Positions 48,435 to 63,100 of a stretch of 64,000 nucleotides of DNA are shown here, piece after piece. The stretch spans positions 7,006,001-7,070,000 of the forward strand of contig OZ024745.1 in NCBI GenBank assembly GCA_964016885.1, given 5' to 3'. The notes under the pieces are model-generated. The model made no database searches, had not been told where the DNA came from, and was given only the letters and a program-made list of their open reading frames with translations. The position numbers and the translations under genes were made by a program. Each line of letters opens with the position of its first letter. Within the stretch, counting starts at the first letter, position 1. Source of the stretch: Eledone cirrhosa. Lineage: Eukaryota.

Positions 48435-48469
<35 letters not shown>

Positions 48470-48512
48470 TGCGTTGCAAACCTTCCTCCAAGAGATGTTA
48501 TAGTTAATATTT

Positions 48513-49082
48513 TTGTCTTTTAAGGACCATATGAGTTCGATGAATGTTCATAACACCAATCTAAATCTGGAAATTATGGTTCCTATCGTAAATAGCTTCT
48601 CCAATCCAATTCCTTCTATAAATAATAGTAGGTCACTTGTTAATAACTCTGTTAATTTCTCTAATCGTAATTGTAATTGCCCTGTTAGCACTAAATGTCC
48701 TCTTAATAACCAATGGCTTGATAAAAACTTAGTGTATGAATGTAAGGTTATAACTGGTACTAATTATTTTACCTATTTCGGTTCCATTTCCTTTAAAGCA
48801 AGATTTTATAATCACAAATCGTCTTTTAAATACCAACTTAAAAGAACTAACACGGCACTCTCGGAACTCATATGGTCCTTAAAAGACACAAATATTAACT
48901 ATGACATCTCTTGGAGGAAGGTTTGCAACGCCATTTCTTCCCTATCCAGAATATATAATCTCTGCCTAGCCGAGAAATTTACCATTATATCTAATTTTAA
49001 TTCTATAATAAATAGACGTACGGATTTATTTTCGCTCTGCTTGCATAAATCCCATAGAACTTTCCATAAAGTATACAGCTAA
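48513..49082 (+). pseudogene. Penelope-like GIY-YIG endonuclease domain remnant with Cys-rich linker; no RT present
   Basis: CNCPVSTKCPL, LVYECKV...TYFGS, FKARFYNHKSSF, TALSELIWSLKD, NLCLAEK, INRRTDLFSLCLH follow the motif order of PLE C-terminal endonucleases. Confidence 0.85.
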
Positions 49083-50034
49083 TATCTTCTTTTTCTCAAA
49101 GGCTTTTATATCTTTTACAAATATACCCATCTTTCTACCTTATTTCAGTATATTATATTATACAATTTACTCATTCTATGTTGTTAGAGGTCCCCTATCT
49201 TTCTTCTTTTTATCCTTTTTCCTTTCTTCCTTTTTTCTTTTTTAATTTCTAATCTTTAATCTGTAACTTTTACTTCTCAATTACTTCTTAATGCATATTA
49301 TTACTCACTTTGGCTTTTTCCATTTTTCCATTTTCCCTCATATTATTGGCCATAGAAACTATATTTTTTTAATATATAATAATATTACCATTAGAAAATT
49401 TTGTAAACATATATACTTTTTGACGTTATATATTTTTTCTTCTTTCTTCTCTCCTTCCGCACTCGTATTAAACCTATTATTTACTTTCACATATTACAAT
49501 ACATAAAAACAAACTTAAACCCTAACTAATTCCTCTAAGTTCATAATTCATTAAATCTCTCCTTCTTTCACATTATAGCCTTAATATTTTTATTTTAATA
49601 ATACATATTAATAAATTCTTTTTTCGCACATATTATTAAACCCTTCAATATATAAACCTTAAATAAATACATTCCTTTTCCTTCAATCATAAACATCACC
49701 ATCCATAAACCTCATTAACTTTTAATTTCAAATTCTTTTTAAATTATCTATTATCTTTCAACGGTTTTTTTAATTTCTCTCTGTGAGACAATGTTTTCTC
49801 TGTTTTAAAGGCTATTTCTCTCTCTCTATCACTCATTTCTCCTCCTCTCTCATCCTTCCTTCTTATACTCCTCCCCCGTCATCCTTTATTTTCTTTCTTC
49901 CTCTTCCTTACTTTTTCCTACCCCCCCCCCTCCTTTTTTCGCAACCTCATATATCCAGCTTACTTTATTTTTCATATGTTGATTTAACACTTCACTGCTC
50001 GCAAGTGTTTTTTAAGCTTCATATCATGTCTCCC

Positions 50035-50105
50035 TATTTTATCTGATGAGAACGCAAATATCATCCCATGATGATATTTGTTTTTGAAATGCGCATAATA
50101 AAATA
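50035..50105 (+). ncRNA. Type I hammerhead ribozyme in the PLE 3' end
   Basis: TATTTTAT-CTGATGA-G...CAAATATCATC(CCAT)GATGATATTTG...T-GAAA-TGCGCA-TA-ATAAAATA. Stem I is 8 bp, the stem II core is a perfect 11 bp and stem III is palindromic. Predicted cleavage follows A50097. Confidence 0.88.
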
Positions 50106-50224
50106 CTTGGAACTCTTTTAACCATCTTTTGATCTTATATTATTTATACTCCAGGCCTATAAACTGTGGAGTGCTACTTATCCGATATTTGCTTTGCTTT
50201 ATTGTGCTACAATAAAACTCACCT

Positions 50225-50269
<45 letters not shown>

Positions 50270-54166: not shown

Positions 54167-54231
54167 TATTTTATCTGATGAAAGCACACCATAATTTAAC
54201 TTGTTGTCCTTGAAATATGTATAATGAAATA
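54167..54231 (+). ncRNA. Type I hammerhead ribozyme
   Basis: TATTTTAT-CTGATGA-AAGCACA...TGTCCTT-GAAA-TATGTA-TA-ATGAAATA. Stem I is 8 bp with one G-U, and stem II pairs 6 of 7. Confidence 0.8.
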
Positions 54232-54367: not shown

Positions 54368-54458
54368 CGTGTCTGAAAGAACCTGCAGCCGTAGAATCAG
54401 CCAGATCCATACGGGGACCATGTCTCGAGCTACCTACCGGCGAAACAATTGTAACACG
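54368..54458 (+). ncRNA. Atypical or degenerate hammerhead with an expanded core
   Basis: CGTGT-CTGAAAGA-ACCTGCA-GCCGTAG...CTACCGGC-GAAA-CAATTG-TA-ACACG. All three stems are present, with extra nucleotides between CUGA and stem II. It lies in a ~200-bp island between two (TA)n tracts. Confidence 0.55.
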
Positions 54459-54604
54459 TAATAAATTAAGTCCAGATGCATCACTGATTTTTCGTTTTCT
54501 TTATACTATATATATATATATATATATATATACATTATGAAGAGAGAAGAAACATTTAGATATAATTAGTAATAAAATGTATCATACCTAAACTGCTCCT
54601 AAAT

Positions 54605-54692
54605 TCCTCGACTACGTAGTTTCGTGGCATAAACAAAAACAATATATCAAAGATATAGAGTCCTTGCGAGGTCTGCCGACTTATCAAGAGGA
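54605..54692 (-). ncRNA. Type I hammerhead, U3-A8 core variant, copy 1
   Basis: Minus strand reads TCCTC-TTGATAA-GTCGGCA...TGCCAC-GAAA-CTACGTAG-TC-GAGGA, with a GUC triplet and an 8-nt palindromic stem III. Confidence 0.82.
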
Positions 54693-55198
54693 TACCTCAT
54701 TTTACTAGTCTCAAGAACGCGTCTACACGACGTGAGAAAGAATCCCAAAAGGCGGAGGGGGAGATAGTCACGCGATATAACGGTCGAGAAACAGAGCTAA
54801 GCCTCTTATAACCACGAAGAAAATACCACGGAGGCGGAGGGGGTATTCATATCGAGGCCGTAGAAGAGGTAGTGAAGAAGGCGAGAAGTATGAGTAATGG
54901 AAGCTTTCCAGTTGTCCCCACACTTCAAAGATTGCTCGACCAGAGGGAGTTATTAACAATATATTTAGAAACACACAGATACATGCGGACACACATATAT
55001 ATACATGAATGCATCCGCACCCAACTGTGAGTTAAGGGTGCCAACTTCACCGATGTTGCTCAATGAATGACTGGGACAGACCAATTCAGTTTGAACCAGA
55101 CTGAACCAGTATCAGAGTTAAAAATACATTATGAAGAGAGAAGAAACATTTAGATATAATTAGTAATAAAATGTATCATACCTAAACTGCTCCTAAAT

Positions 55199-55286
55199 TC
55201 CTCGACTACGTAGTTTCGTGGCATAAACAAAAACAATATATCAAAGATATAGAGTCCTTGCGAGGTCTGCCGACTTATCAAGAGGA
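55199..55286 (-). ncRNA. Type I hammerhead, U3-A8 core variant, copy 2
   Basis: Identical to 54605-54692. Confidence 0.82.
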
Positions 55287-55476
55287 TACCTCATTTTACT
55301 AGTCTCAAGAACGCGTCTACACGACGTGATATTTATATAACCAAAGTTTATATGGTTCATTGATTATTCAACGAATACAATTTTACAATAGATTAGAAGC
55401 ACTCGACAGTATTTATCAGGAGTATTTAATATTATTCAAAATATTAATAAATGAAAAATATTCCCATAACCAAAAT

Positions 55477-55545
55477 ATATATTTTATTATACATATTTCA
55501 AAGGTACAATGGTATTTCAGTGCGTTTTCATCAGATAAAATATAT
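55477..55545 (-). ncRNA. Type I hammerhead ribozyme related to 54167-54231
   Basis: Minus strand reads ATATATTTTAT-CTGATGA-AAACGCAC...GTACCTTT-GAAA-TATGTA-TA-ATAAAATATAT. Stem I is 11 bp and stem II is imperfect. Confidence 0.8.
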
Positions 55546-55844: not shown

Positions 55845-55850
<6 letters not shown>

Positions 55851-56009
55851 ACGAGTAGGACCCCGACGGCTGAACTCAAGCCGTTTCGACGGTTAATTCT
55901 GGACTAAATTAGCATAATTAACCATATAAAAAATCAATTAGACCATTTAGTCCAGAATTAGCCGTCGAAATGGCTTGAGCTCAGCCGTCGGGGTCCTACT
56001 CGTTCCTAT
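55845..56009. repeat. 65-bp inverted repeat with a 35-bp spacer
   Basis: 55845-55909 and 55945-56009 are reverse complements with 4 transition mismatches; the spacer recurs at 56172-56211. Confidence 0.9.
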
Positions 56010-56086
56010 TACCCACTCTACTACCCTAAGTATTGAGTACTTTGGTGCGTTATGGTCCATCTGGTTCCTTACCACATTTCCTTCGT

Positions 56087-56119
<33 letters not shown>

Positions 56120-56335
56120 CACAAATCATGTCCTTAGAATTATTAGATAAAATATATACCATTTCCTCTCCAAATTAGCATAATTAACCATATAAAAAAA
56201 TCAATTAGACCAGGCTATAAGAATAAAGGCTCCTATGAAGAAATATTTGATAAATAACCGAAAGCAGCCTCTTCGCGGTGACCCCAATAGAGTATTTACC
56301 CAACATGCTGTTGAAATCTATCTATCTATTTATCT

Positions 56336-58532
56336 TCATGGTAGCCTATTCAGATCACAAATTAGTGACCTGCTTAGACAACCTTGACAAAACCCATAGA
56401 CAGGGACCCGGCTACTGGAAGCTGAACTTGTCGTTACCGACATGCAAAGCCTACAGTAGACGGATTAGCACTTTAGTTAAGCAGCACTTGACAGGGGCCA
56501 TTGTCAACAACAGATGGTGGTACTCTCTCAAGAGGGCAGTTAGATTAGACTCGATAGGTTTTAGTAAAGAATTAGTGTTAGATAGAAATAAGACCGAAAA
56601 GGAACTGGTAGATAAAGTAGAAGAGGGAATTAGGAGTGGCAACGTAGCCAGCGTGCTAGCGACGAGAACGGCCTTGGACCAGTTCTTCGACGCAAAGCGT
56701 GAAGGCTGCGTTGTCAGGAGCAAAATACGTGCTCTGAGAAACGAAGGAGCCAAAGCTGTTAGCTGGGCCCGAGTGACGGGGGCGTATAGTGGCAACAAAT
56801 CCACGATTCGGTCTTTGAAGGACCAAGACGGACGCGTGATACGTGAGCCGAAGCAGATGTGCGCGGCCTTTCAGCGGCACTTCGCTCAACTGTTCGGGCT
56901 ATGGATTTCGGTCCATACCTCGACGGCCTACTGCGACTCTCGGACAGCGATGCGAAGTTCTGCGAAAGGCCGATTTCGGCCGCTGAGATAGGGGACGCAC
57001 TGAGCCAATACGGCAAACGCAAATCTCCAGGTCTCGACGGTCTACCCTACGAATTTTATGTAGCAATGTCGGACTTGTTCTCTGGTCTCCTGGAAGGGTC
57101 AAGTTGAACGGCTACCTCTCGGAGCCGTTCCATATCACGCGATCCATCCGACAGGGATGCCCTCTCTCCTCCCTTCTGTACGTACTGACTCTCGAGCCAC
57201 TACTGCGGAAGTTGGAGCTATTGCAGGGCATCCCTTTGGGACCGGGACTGCGAAAAGCGGCGTTGGCCTACGCCGACGACGTGACAGTAATGGTGTCGAG
57301 CACCTCGCAAATCGGGGAGGTCGGCACCTTACTGGAGCAATACGAAAGGTTCACAGGAGCTAAGCTGAACCGGGACAAATCCGTCGGTTTGCAACTCGGA
57401 ACTTGGAGAGGCAAACCGATGTCTTCCGATGGTGTAGTCGGACGCTTGACGGAAGGACCGGTAAAGCTGATCGGGGTCTGGTTTGGTCCGGACCTCCAGG
57501 TGGAGAAGAACTGGAACGAGATGACGGCCAAGGTGTTTGCGCTCACCCAGAAGTGGGCCGAGTGCAAACTATCCTTGAAAGGTCGAGCGGAGGTGGCGAA
57601 CACTTTTATAGCGTCCGTCATCTACTACCGCTTGACCGTCGTTCCTTGTCCAGCCAACACCCTTCAAACGGAGGGCTGGGGTTGCTGTGGCTGACGATAC
57701 GTAAACACGCGCTCAGGCTGCGCCACCTTCACGTATTCCTCACCAGACAACCGGTGTGGGCCCTGTTCGTGAGGCGAGCCTTCCCACGACTCGTCACGCT
57801 GACCGAGCTGCAATCCTAGTTTAAGCAAAGACCGAGGAAAATGGGCGACTGGCACATCGAATGTGCTCAGGCACTCACAGTCCTCTGGCAAACGGACCCG
57901 GCGATCAGTGGAGACTCCACTTCGACATTCTCTAGAGGGTTGGTCCGCAGAAAGTGCGACGACACACTCGGAGAAACTCTAGGAGTAGAGGAGGACGAAC
58001 TGGCCAGTCTGTTCGGTAGGACCTTCCGCCCGGGACCAATGGACAACTTCCAAAAGTCCCTGGCCTGGTAGTGCTACCGAGGAGCTCTACCAGTTCGAGA
58101 CAAGCTCTACAGACACAGGCGCCCGGGTAGGGACCCTTCGTAAAAGATCTGTCCGAGATGCGTGCGCGACGAGGAAACCGTCGCGCACGCATTTGTACAC
58201 TGCCCAGGCGTTACCGACCTGTGGGGCTATGTAGAACGATTATTGTCGCGGGTGGGACCAATCCAGTTGACCACCGAGTCCATTGTCATGATCAAACCGC
58301 CACCCTCCTTCAAAAACGAGGGAGAGGCGGTTTTCCTATATGTTATGGCTATGGTGAAAGAGGTTATATGGTTCTCTCCGGCGAGCAACTGATTCGTTTT
58401 TTCAAATATCATTTTGGAAGAAGAATCAGGGTGGAGAGAGAGGTGCTGTACCCCAGCAAATTTTATAAAAGGTGTGTGAATGTGGCAAAGATGGCCCGAG
58501 TGGTTGGGCCTTCTCTCTATATAAGCCTGTAG
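56336..58532 (+). pseudogene. Disrupted LINE ORF2 (endonuclease end, reverse transcriptase, zinc knuckle)
   Basis: Pieces lie in different frames (56278-56991, 56859-57107, 57104-57694, 57841-58071, 58162-58392, 58158-58532). RT subdomains 1-3 are missing at ~57090. Confidence 0.88.
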
Positions 58533-61749: not shown

Positions 61750-62992
61750 TCAGAAATGACTGGATTTCCTGGATTTGCGGTTGTAGTCCAGGTCGCATTC
61801 CCGCACTAGCACCCAGATATAGTCCCCCATCATTTTTTCATTGTAGTGGCCATGGTACCTCCATTCTATCTCTTTCACATCTTGGTGGAATCGTTCGCCT
61901 TGTTCTTCTGAGTAGGCACCCATATTGTCCTTGAATTTTTCCAGGTGAGCGTCCAGCATATAGAGTTTAAGCGACATCCTGGATCCCATGGCGCCAAAAG
62001 CCTTTATCAGATCCTGCACCAGTTGCTGGTAGTTTTCAGCTCTGTAGTTGTCCAGGAAGCCCTTAACAACTGCCTTGAAACAGTTCCAAGCTGTTCTCTC
62101 AATCCTATTGAGCTTATTGGAGAACTCGGTAGACTCAAACACCTTCTTTATCTGAGGTCAAACAAAAATTCCACCTTTGATTTTGGCCTCAGATAATTTG
62201 GGGAAGAACTCAAGAAGGTACTTCAAAGCGGCTGATTCTTGGTTGAGAGCCTTCACAAACTGCTTCATCAACCCCAACTTAATGTGCAGTGGCGGCATGA
62301 GCACAATCCTGGGATCAACCAGTGGCTCCCACATGACGTTCCGGGTCCCAACTACAAATTCTGTTCGTTGCTCCCAGTTCTTTCCTTTGTAGTGGTCAGA
62401 GGTGGCTCTGCTGTCCCAAAGGCAGAGAAAGCATTGGAATTTGATAAAGCCTCCTTGGAGTCCAAGCAGGAAAGCTACCATCTTGAAGTCTCCAATGATT
62501 TCCCAATTGTACTAGTTGTATTGCAGAGCTTCCAAGAGGACTTTCACACTGTAGTAATCTTCCTTCAGGCAGACTGAATGAGCTAGGGGCAGTGTCGGGA
62601 ACTTGTTTCCATTGTGGAGGAGGACAGCCTTCAAACTTGTGGTGGAGTTGTCTATAAATAGCCGCCACTCCTTGGGCACAAACGGCACCCCCAATAACGT
62701 CAAACAGTCCAGGCACGTCATGGCAGAAGCAGAGGCCATCCCTAAGAGTGTAAAAGCCTGAGAAAGGTTCGTGTCGACTTCTCTGACTTGTCACCTGCAC
62801 ATCTCTCCTTTACCAAGTTCCACTGCTTCATCCTGGATACGAATAGCTCTGCATTGGACTTGGTCAGACCCATATCCCTGGCCAAGTCATTGACTTCTTT
62901 TTGGTTTGGGAAGTGAGGAACTTTTTCTGGTACCTCAGGCAGGTAATCCAAGTCTTCAGCATCCATCTCCTCCTCATTATCAGAATACTTGT
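61750..62992 (-). pseudogene. Chapaev-like transposase pseudogene (N-terminus missing)
   Basis: WRLFIDNSTTSLKAVLLHNGN, LGLQGGFIKFQCFLCLWDSRA, PPLHIKLGLMKQFVKAL, FPKLSEAKIKGGIFV, SEEQGERFHQD, MMGDYIW. In-frame stops at ~62158 and ~62512 plus frameshifts. Confidence 0.85.
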
Positions 62993-63040
62993 CTTGGAAA
63001 ATAAATTTGATATGCAATACAAAATAAATATTGGAAAAGG

Positions 63041-63100
63041 AAATACATATTTAAATAATACTAATGAAAATACATATTTAAATAATACTAATGAAAATAC
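63041..63100. repeat. 27-bp tandem duplication, ~2.2 copies
   Basis: AAATACATATTTAAATAATACTAATGA twice, plus a partial copy. Confidence 0.85.

Follow-up and report, generated by a model that had tools for sequence, protein, structure and literature searches.

Introduction

Retrozymes are tandem repeats of type I hammerhead ribozymes that are expressed as circular RNAs (PMC7229834). In metazoans, the retrozymes that lack long terminal repeats (LTRs) share tandem non-coding units with one type I hammerhead each, a short palindromic stem III, a GC content below 50%, a self-paired fold, thousands of copies and coexisting Penelope-like elements (PLEs). Their mobilisation by PLEs via the circle has been proposed (PMC7229834; 10.64898/2026.07.22.740005). 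Here we analyzed a locus of Eledone cirrhosa. In a stretch of 64,000 nt (assembly GCA_964016885.1, contig OZ024745.1, positions 7,006,001 to 7,070,000 of the forward strand; hereafter the window, whose positions are used throughout) the minus strand of 54530..55329 carries an element that a first-pass annotation had tentatively assigned to a young, non-coding, PLE-mobilised retrozyme family. This is still the best reading. We consider it probable that the element is a young non-autonomous non-LTR retrozyme which is excised by its hammerhead, likely circular, and copied by a PLE from two fixed sites into (TA)n.

Endonuclease-bearing PLEs (PMC8557442, PMC3846280, PMC11167929) leave insertions that resemble those described here: partial tandems, an inverted 5’-truncated copy, a tail at one end and a bias for (TA)n, with two internal start sites bounding the tail and both strands cut and extended. 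The inverted copy and the one-sided tail are described in PLE reviews and explained differently there (PMC8557442, PMC3846280), head-to-head arms being attributed to self-priming on an antisense template (PMC3846280). In experiments with a purified anole PLE both strands were cut and extended, starting at two internal sites which delimit the tail of genomic copies (PMC11167929). In contrast to PLEs the present element has no protein, and its tail measures 165 nt as compared to 30–40 nt. Priming by the anole element needs no homology, while UAU/TA microhomology is present at the start sites here; and although the two strands did not differ in vitro (PMC11167929), the two arms of the present insertions are always assigned to different sites.

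The hammerhead of the family carries U3-A8 in place of C3-G8. This joint exchange is known from natural hammerheads, for which activity in vitro was reported from earlier work (PMC3088659), and occurs in about 1,300 hammerheads of Schistosoma PLEs (PMC4209133). Pseudoknots between stems I and II are found in about 40% of hammerheads (PMC3088659). Our family has the exchange, the association with PLEs and the pseudoknots in common with these systems, but in the Cercyon PLE U3-A8 sits in heterogeneous single minimal motifs (PMC4209133), whereas here it is part of a full hammerhead with stem III and pseudoknot in near-identical tandem non-coding units. Plant LTR retrozymes (PMC7229834; 10.64898/2026.07.22.740005) likewise have two hammerheads flanking a non-coding interior of ~600 nt and a predicted circle whose fold masks part of the ribozyme; they differ by a type III instead of a type I hammerhead, by fixed LTRs instead of concatemers, by a target duplication of 4 bp, and by host and insertion ends, which here are animal and PLE-type. 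Compared to described metazoan retrozymes, the family is set apart by its unit of ~591 nt, the U3-A8 core, a long stem II in which a Watson-Crick pseudoknot is predicted where loop-loop contacts are usual, and strict targeting to (TA)n with two fixed ends, one per arm. Such insertion ends are not described in the accessible text of PMC7229834 or 10.64898/2026.07.22.740005.

Anatomy of the window copy

The first-pass annotation had reported two identical 206-bp repeats with UUGAUAA, GAAA, a palindrome and a GUC site, which is accurate to the base. Positions 54530-54735 equal 55124-55329 at an offset of 594, with 388 bp between them. On its minus strand each repeat shows stem I UCCUC, the core UUGAUAA, the pair G10.1-C11.1, GAAA, the palindrome ACUACGUAGU and GUC^GAGGA; the stem II region between G10.1 and C11.1 comprises 57 nt. 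The features of the copy are as follows.

54530..55329, minus strand: whole insertion, 1.35 retrozyme units, one-armed, with a fixed 3’ end at 54530 and a random 5’ break at 55329
54610..55203, minus strand: predicted cut-to-cut monomer, 594 nt, 42% GC, without long reading frame
55199..55293, minus strand: upstream type I hammerhead, predicted cut 55204/55203, based among others on covariation; pseudoknot strand 55288-55293 (with 55261-55266), stem I 55282-55286 and 55199-55203, U3 to A9 55275-55281, long stem II 55218-55274, GAAA 55214-55217, palindromic stem III 55205-55214
54605..54699, minus strand: downstream hammerhead, identical to the upstream one, predicted cut 54610/54609
54667..54699, minus strand: predicted pseudoknot between stems I and II, UGAGGU (54694-54699) with ACCUCG (54667-54672), based on a constant register with differing paired sequences across five sequence classes
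54530..54532, minus strand: initiation site 1, UAU, 80 nt after the cut, where this copy ends and joins (TA)n; its internal counterpart lies at 55124
55059..55117, minus strand: bulged hairpin after site 1, CUC-UGA...UCA-UU-GAG, with compensated changes in sister units
54959..54961, minus strand: initiation site 2, UAU, 245 nt after the cut; the window copy does not end there
54935..54949, minus strand: bulged hairpin after site 2, CUC-CC-UCU-GG-UC-GAG, weak in the window sequence and outside the local minimum-energy fold
54507..54532, no strand: (TA)n target, sharing 3 nt of microhomology with the element end
54751-54760 and 54833-54842 (span 54751..54842), minus strand: two CCCCUCCGCC boxes, candidate promoter elements, retained in sister units down to 60% identity

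The annotation had seen no credible open reading frame, and around the circularised unit the longest Met-started frame indeed has 29 aa in sense and 46 aa in antisense direction. Its monomer of 594 nt is to be qualified: both predicted cuts stand, but the length applies to this copy only, 591 nt being the commonest. When the circularised unit was folded and compared to 40 shuffles per strand, we obtained z = -5.3 for the ribozyme strand and z = -0.9 for the opposite strand; this strand preference fails in three older sister units. The predicted circle fold masks part of the ribozyme, since the 3’ strand of stem I pairs again downstream. None of the 30 Rfam matches at E≤5 was a hammerhead.

A dispersed family of concatemers

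We searched the genome (3.0 Gb) with an 18-nt core pattern and obtained 6,383 matches, as compared to 7 for the reversed control. Such a genome-wide copy number was among the checks named by the annotation. UUGAUAA was present in 99 of the first 100 listed matches. Genome-wide, C3 occurs in only 9 core matches, all of them C3-A8, and C3-G8 in none. For the architecture we used 54 loci spanning the first 100 listed matches, which hold 55 insertions with a median identity of 97.9% to the window unit. All are concatemers of one unit of ~591 nt and are 263–4,577 nt long. The spacing between hammerheads ranges from 590 to 607 nt with 591 nt as the most frequent value (17 of 31). At least two hammerheads on the same strand were found in 23 of the 55 insertions, and the largest arrays comprise at least 12 full units. 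Extrapolated from 55 insertions per 100 matches, about 3,500 dispersed insertions with TA junctions of their own are expected.

The picture of two repeats flanking an interior is therefore to be replaced by a concatemer of one unit whose 5’ breaks fall at unit positions 65–594. The 206 bp mark where the 5’ end of this copy broke, so that they represent a partial second lap and not a terminal repeat; an LTR was rejected, as the repeat length varies between insertions. The internal 388 bp are multicopy (49 matches from 40 scored candidates). The tandem junction of the unit is confirmed by contigs of two other public runs that span it. One closed-cycle contig was present in each of the two runs (621 and 620 nt, i.e. 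unit length plus 30). We rejected these as evidence for RNA circles, because tandem DNA yields the same cycle and the kind of run is not known. Both runs also contain low-depth PLE fragments, as expected of trace host DNA.

In all 55 sampled insertions the arms hold unit sequence only, full laps close on themselves, and no coding sequence is joined to the unit. The unit is therefore not the end of a longer PLE. Likewise, we consider it extremely improbable, and already largely refuted, that the element derives from the terminus of an autonomous PLE and was later amplified locally as a satellite by unequal crossing over, a route suggested in 10.64898/2026.07.22.740005. The PLE-like ends would fit, as Xenopus retrozymes resemble PLE termini (10.64898/2026.07.22.740005), and a few arrays do lie in locally duplicated blocks (L063, L103/L104). 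However, the dispersed insertions each have their own TA junctions, the sister units of 96–60% identity are non-coding as well, and inverted arms with different fixed ends are impossible to obtain by unequal crossing over. At L063 and L103/L104 entire insertions were duplicated locally together with their flanks after insertion.

Non-coding sister units of 591–597 nt were found at 96, 83, 76 and 60% identity, and remoter ones have 465–566 nt. Together they form an old non-autonomous lineage of which the window family is the youngest branch.

Two fixed ends, one per arm

The outer 3’ ends of the insertions fall almost exclusively on two sites: 40 of 83 are located at unit position 1 and another 40 near position 430 (together 80/83). 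78 of the 83 adjoin TA repeats via a UAU/ATA overlap. The 5’ breaks are scattered over unit positions 65 to 594 (27 one-armed ends). In 30 of the 55 insertions two arms are joined 5’ to 5’. Two of these could not be classified; each of the 28 that could combines an arm ending at site 1 with an arm ending at site 2 (27 independent cases, as L063 is duplicated). These figures stem from an alignment-based count, while a tag-based count gave 21 of 23 mixed pairs, the two exceptions being internal point mutants. Among one-armed insertions 11 end at site 1, 13 at site 2 and 1 elsewhere. No target duplication of 4 bp was seen, though duplications are unreadable within (TA)n. In L052 and L062 neither arm is contained within the other, which rules out a fold-back copy and means that both arms were copied from RNA.

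We further compared the 81 full units with each other. Within arms they differ at 3.0 positions on average and 15 of 126 pairs are identical, whereas between loci the mean is 13.6 differences and none of 3,098 pairs is identical. Of the 40 substitutions that vary within insertions, 33 are private. The arms of L090 show no difference over 568 nt and have 11 differences from the window in common; the arms of some older insertions diverge further (14 differences in L075, 16 in L084). The private variants shared by arms and laps indicate that one RNA molecule templated each insertion, and a circle is the simplest single template.

The same element could also be inserted by a PLE from two sites without any circle, if its template were a linear multimer that is transcribed from the genomic arrays and stays uncut or is cut in part. 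Uncut RNA is the main substrate of the purified PLE (PMC11167929), and both the variants common to the two arms and the read-through of cut junctions, more than 99% of which are intact in genomic copies, fit a homogeneous multimer equally well. Nevertheless we regard such a template as unlikely. Arrays are homogeneous inside and different between loci, and most variable substitutions are private; repeated copying of multimers should transmit unit-specific variants and cannot lengthen arrays. A monomer bottleneck is the simpler account of array homogeneity.

Ends that coincide exactly with the predicted cut were counted as well. We found them in 16 of 30 examined copies among 57 matches, corresponding to about 30 genome-wide; 15 were scored by script and one is L213, a family copy with a local duplication. 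The control 4 nt before the cut gave 13 of 30 among 31 matches (about 13), the control 3 nt after the cut 2 of 29 (2), and the control 9 nt after the cut 9 of 30 among 42 matches (about 13). The small excess at the cut indicates linear ends at this position in some templates and counts in favour of the multimer. For our preferred reading, self-cleavage of the minus-strand transcript is predicted from the hammerhead sequence, and a circular form of the RNA is likely.

Conservation of the hammerhead

The reading of U3-A8 as simple decay had already been doubted in the first-pass annotation, and we rejected it: the family is fixed for the pair, which also appears in further families. Genome-wide, other U3-A8 families account for 1,426 matches as compared to 104 in the control, and long C3-G8 families for 1,676 as compared to 40. 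In 21 aligned hammerheads the catalytic bases are invariant except for position 7 and the joint C3-G8/U3-A8 swap. The pair G10.1-C11.1 and the GUC triplet are also invariant across families with diverged flanks. Among 14 related hammerheads 89.8% of the cells are paired and double changes occur at 13 of 38 pairs, while slid controls are paired to 33–49%; since the sequences are related and the structure was set by hand, these counts are support and not a probability. The stem III palindrome varies as compensated pairs.

The segment directly 5’ of stem I pairs with the internal loop of stem II in a fixed register. The paired sequences differ between classes: UGAGGU/ACCUCG in the window family, and UGGAAA/UUUCCA, UUGUAA/UUACAG, GAGCA/UGCUC and CGAGU/ACUCG in the others. 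The pairing is present in five of six classes, and across the six the cognate combination beats 718–719 of 720 permutations. We used this permutation test as an earlier control was weak, related families sharing the motif. Overall, the sequence variation indicates that the hammerhead structure is conserved and under selection.

Selection could in principle act on the fold for another reason such as protein binding, with a weak or inactive U3-A8 hammerhead in a passenger resembling short interspersed elements. We consider this very unlikely. U-A gave no rescue in one type III construct (PMC9901934), most Xenopus retrozyme dimers were inactive (10.64898/2026.07.22.740005), and nearly all junctions are uncut in the copies. 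On the other hand, the core bases, G10.1-C11.1 and GUC stay invariant despite diverged flanks, stem III changes are compensated, ends are enriched at the exact cut, and activity in vitro has been reported for U3-A8 (PMC3088659). A U3-A8 core is not automatically active, only the G:C swap at this pair having rescued in one pairwise mutagenesis (PMC9901934).

Long-stem II hammerheads have radiated throughout the genome, in C3-G8 and U3-A8 families, several of which form tandem units of 465–597 nt. In the C3-G8 family L157 we noticed a pseudoknot, UGAGGU/CCUCG, in common with the window family.

A candidate helper and the proposed mechanism

The genome contains a PLE family of 3.53–3.54 kb with an open frame of 784–786 codons in all 20 fetched loci. 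In the 8 top-scoring copies that we compared, the frames are on average 0.43% apart. In two of the frames Pfam found no family. The frame has 651 unnamed homologues and contains YRDD at 415 and VIYQC..YIGLT at 658-677, which we take to be its reverse-transcriptase and GIY-YIG motifs. Copies of this PLE are arranged head to tail in concatemers and contain a U3-A8 hammerhead. Its UAU ends lie at two fixed sites in (TA)n; in 12 of 12 two-armed copies, read by eye, the two different ends are paired. From these features it appears to be the most likely helper of the retrozyme, as a candidate. One concatemer of this PLE (L168, 8773-9983) shows at its 5’ break more than 20 repeats of a 55-bp stretch of the frame, in inverted orientation.

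All four start sites, two of the retrozyme and two of the PLE, are followed after 5–9 nt by CUC, an inner stem, a 2-nt bulge and GAG. In shuffled sequence, about 0.3% of 8-nt windows contain this bulged hairpin motif. It is kept in sister units, and older PLE copies differ mainly in loop and bulge. The common hairpin may serve as a lead only. From the second, older PLE family no clean ends were recovered for this comparison. None of 40 loci representing other hammerhead families and PLEs contained a coding parent homologous to the unit; a PLE fragment beside L125/L127 was rejected as parent, as it is a separate insertion after a TA run.

In the mechanism we favour, the minus strand would be transcribed and the U3-A8 hammerhead, aided by the pseudoknot, would cut a unit of ~591 nt from the transcript, with two palindromic stem III strands possibly pairing and thereby helping cleavage. 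The excised monomer would be ligated into an RNA circle. A PLE dimer would cut both strands of the palindromic (TA)n and prime one strand per site, beside the bulged hairpin. The borrowed PLE reverse transcriptase would copy the circle repeatedly into the microsatellite, and two cDNAs would be joined 5’ to 5’. For the window copy, this would have been a one-armed event primed at site 1 and comprising 1.35 laps. We regard it as possible, without favouring it yet, that the dimer holds one circle at two bulged hairpins and that the retrozyme hijacks the 3.5-kb PLE by hairpin mimicry.

A number of observations speak against this mechanism or parts of it. The excess of ends at the cut is modest, with only three controls whose spread is 2–13, and the control at position 83 undercounts TA-joined ends; the covariation counts are limited as stated above. 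When the window hammerhead is folded in isolation, the predicted probability of the active-fold stem III and of the two initial pairs of stem II is low (0.06–0.16). Pairwise mutagenesis of positions 3-8 in a type III hammerhead gave rescue with the G:C swap alone (PMC9901934), and in Xenopus 8 of 9 predicted retrozyme dimers were uncleaved in vitro (10.64898/2026.07.22.740005). For the purified PLE hammerhead cleavage is dispensable, uncut RNA being the main template, and start sites are used equally on both strands (PMC11167929). With regard to the helper, it represents the one young PLE family covered, no sequence homology between PLE and retrozyme was found (best E 0.9), a pseudoknot in the PLE hammerhead is unsupported (shuffle p 0.5–0.65), and 25 one-armed 5’ junctions revealed no chimera of retrozyme and helper. 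The definition of the hairpin motif is post hoc, and the motif lies outside the minimum-energy local fold at retrozyme site 2 and helper site 1.

Classification

Judged by its sequence, the element is a non-LTR retrozyme in all features of that class. Each unit has a type I hammerhead, with a U3-A8 core; units are in tandem with at least two complete hammerheads, the window copy having two. There is no protein and no fixed LTR (no separate search for a primer-binding site or polypurine tract was made). The fold is stable and self-paired, GC is 0.42 and thus below 50%, and autonomous PLEs are present in the genome. The unit of 590–607 nt is above the 170–400 nt given in PMC7229834 and inside the 51–972 bp given in 10.64898/2026.07.22.740005. 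The element is no autonomous PLE, as it lacks a long frame for reverse transcriptase and GIY-YIG. The insertion signature of PLEs is present (partial tandems, inverted 5’ copy, one-end tail, microsatellite target). It behaves as PLE cargo without being a PLE. Neither is it a plant LTR retrozyme, because its topology is type I and its repeat length differs per insertion.

The kind of element, the U3-A8 core, pseudoknots in hammerheads and two-site initiation by PLEs are each already published. For the novelty suggested in the first-pass annotation this means that U3-A8 is not new (PMC3088659, PMC4209133), while no description of the family was found in the literature searched; Dfam, Repbase, subscription papers and supplements lay outside that search, and the supplements of PMC7229834 and 10.64898/2026.07.22.740005 could list relatives.

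Neighbourhood in the window

The region around the retrozyme is a nest of TA-targeting elements. Two further minimal PLE-type hammerheads are located at 54167-54231 (plus strand) and 55330-55542 (minus strand). The 5’ end of the retrozyme adjoins the 3’ end of the minus-strand PLE fragment, so that it landed in the TA tail of this fragment. A degenerate long hammerhead-like motif of another repeat (54369-54457, plus strand; GUGU, CUGAAAG ... GAAACAAUUGUA, ACAC) shares the same TA run. At 55848-56089 the active U3-A8 PLE has left a short remnant with two arms that both end in (TA)n, the left one at site 1 of this PLE and the right one at its site 2; the hairpin 55855-55999 is the inversion within the remnant. 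A 5’-truncated PLE of the second, older family (150 scored relatives, 80–89% identity) occupies 48460-50226 on the plus strand. It has an endonuclease-like frame (48504-49082), a long 3’ region, a minimal C3-G8 hammerhead at 50043 and an end in (TA)n.

Further away, 1-45400 consist of an AT-rich satellite that is strongly skewed between strands; its period of 19 bp and its consensus were derived from the first 6 kb. A broken element of the type of long interspersed elements is located at 56254-58532 (plus strand; reverse-transcriptase match PF00078, E 5.6e-11). Several broken frames at 61750-63050 (minus strand) resemble one gene, presumably transposase-like; the piece tested had no Pfam match.

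Implications

Searches that require CUGANGA overlook several thousand hammerheads in this one genome, as the first-pass annotation had anticipated. What the family adds to the published systems is an insertion footprint together with a candidate helper, which render the proposed PLE/circle route testable. Two open points are concerned: how animal retrozymes return into DNA, for which PLE copying of a circle has been proposed but not demonstrated (PMC7229834; 10.64898/2026.07.22.740005), and how PLE insertions come to be tandem and inverted, with a tail on one side only. Together, a young non-coding unit, a PLE with intact frames in the same genome and a predicted common hairpin make up a small in vitro system for both. 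If hairpin mimicry holds true, the PLE tail and the head-to-head arms would be the outcome of one event, and the retrozyme would be a natural 0.6-kb substrate for rolling-circle target-primed reverse transcription. If the enzyme is recruited by structure alone, it could write short RNA circles into TA repeats in trans.
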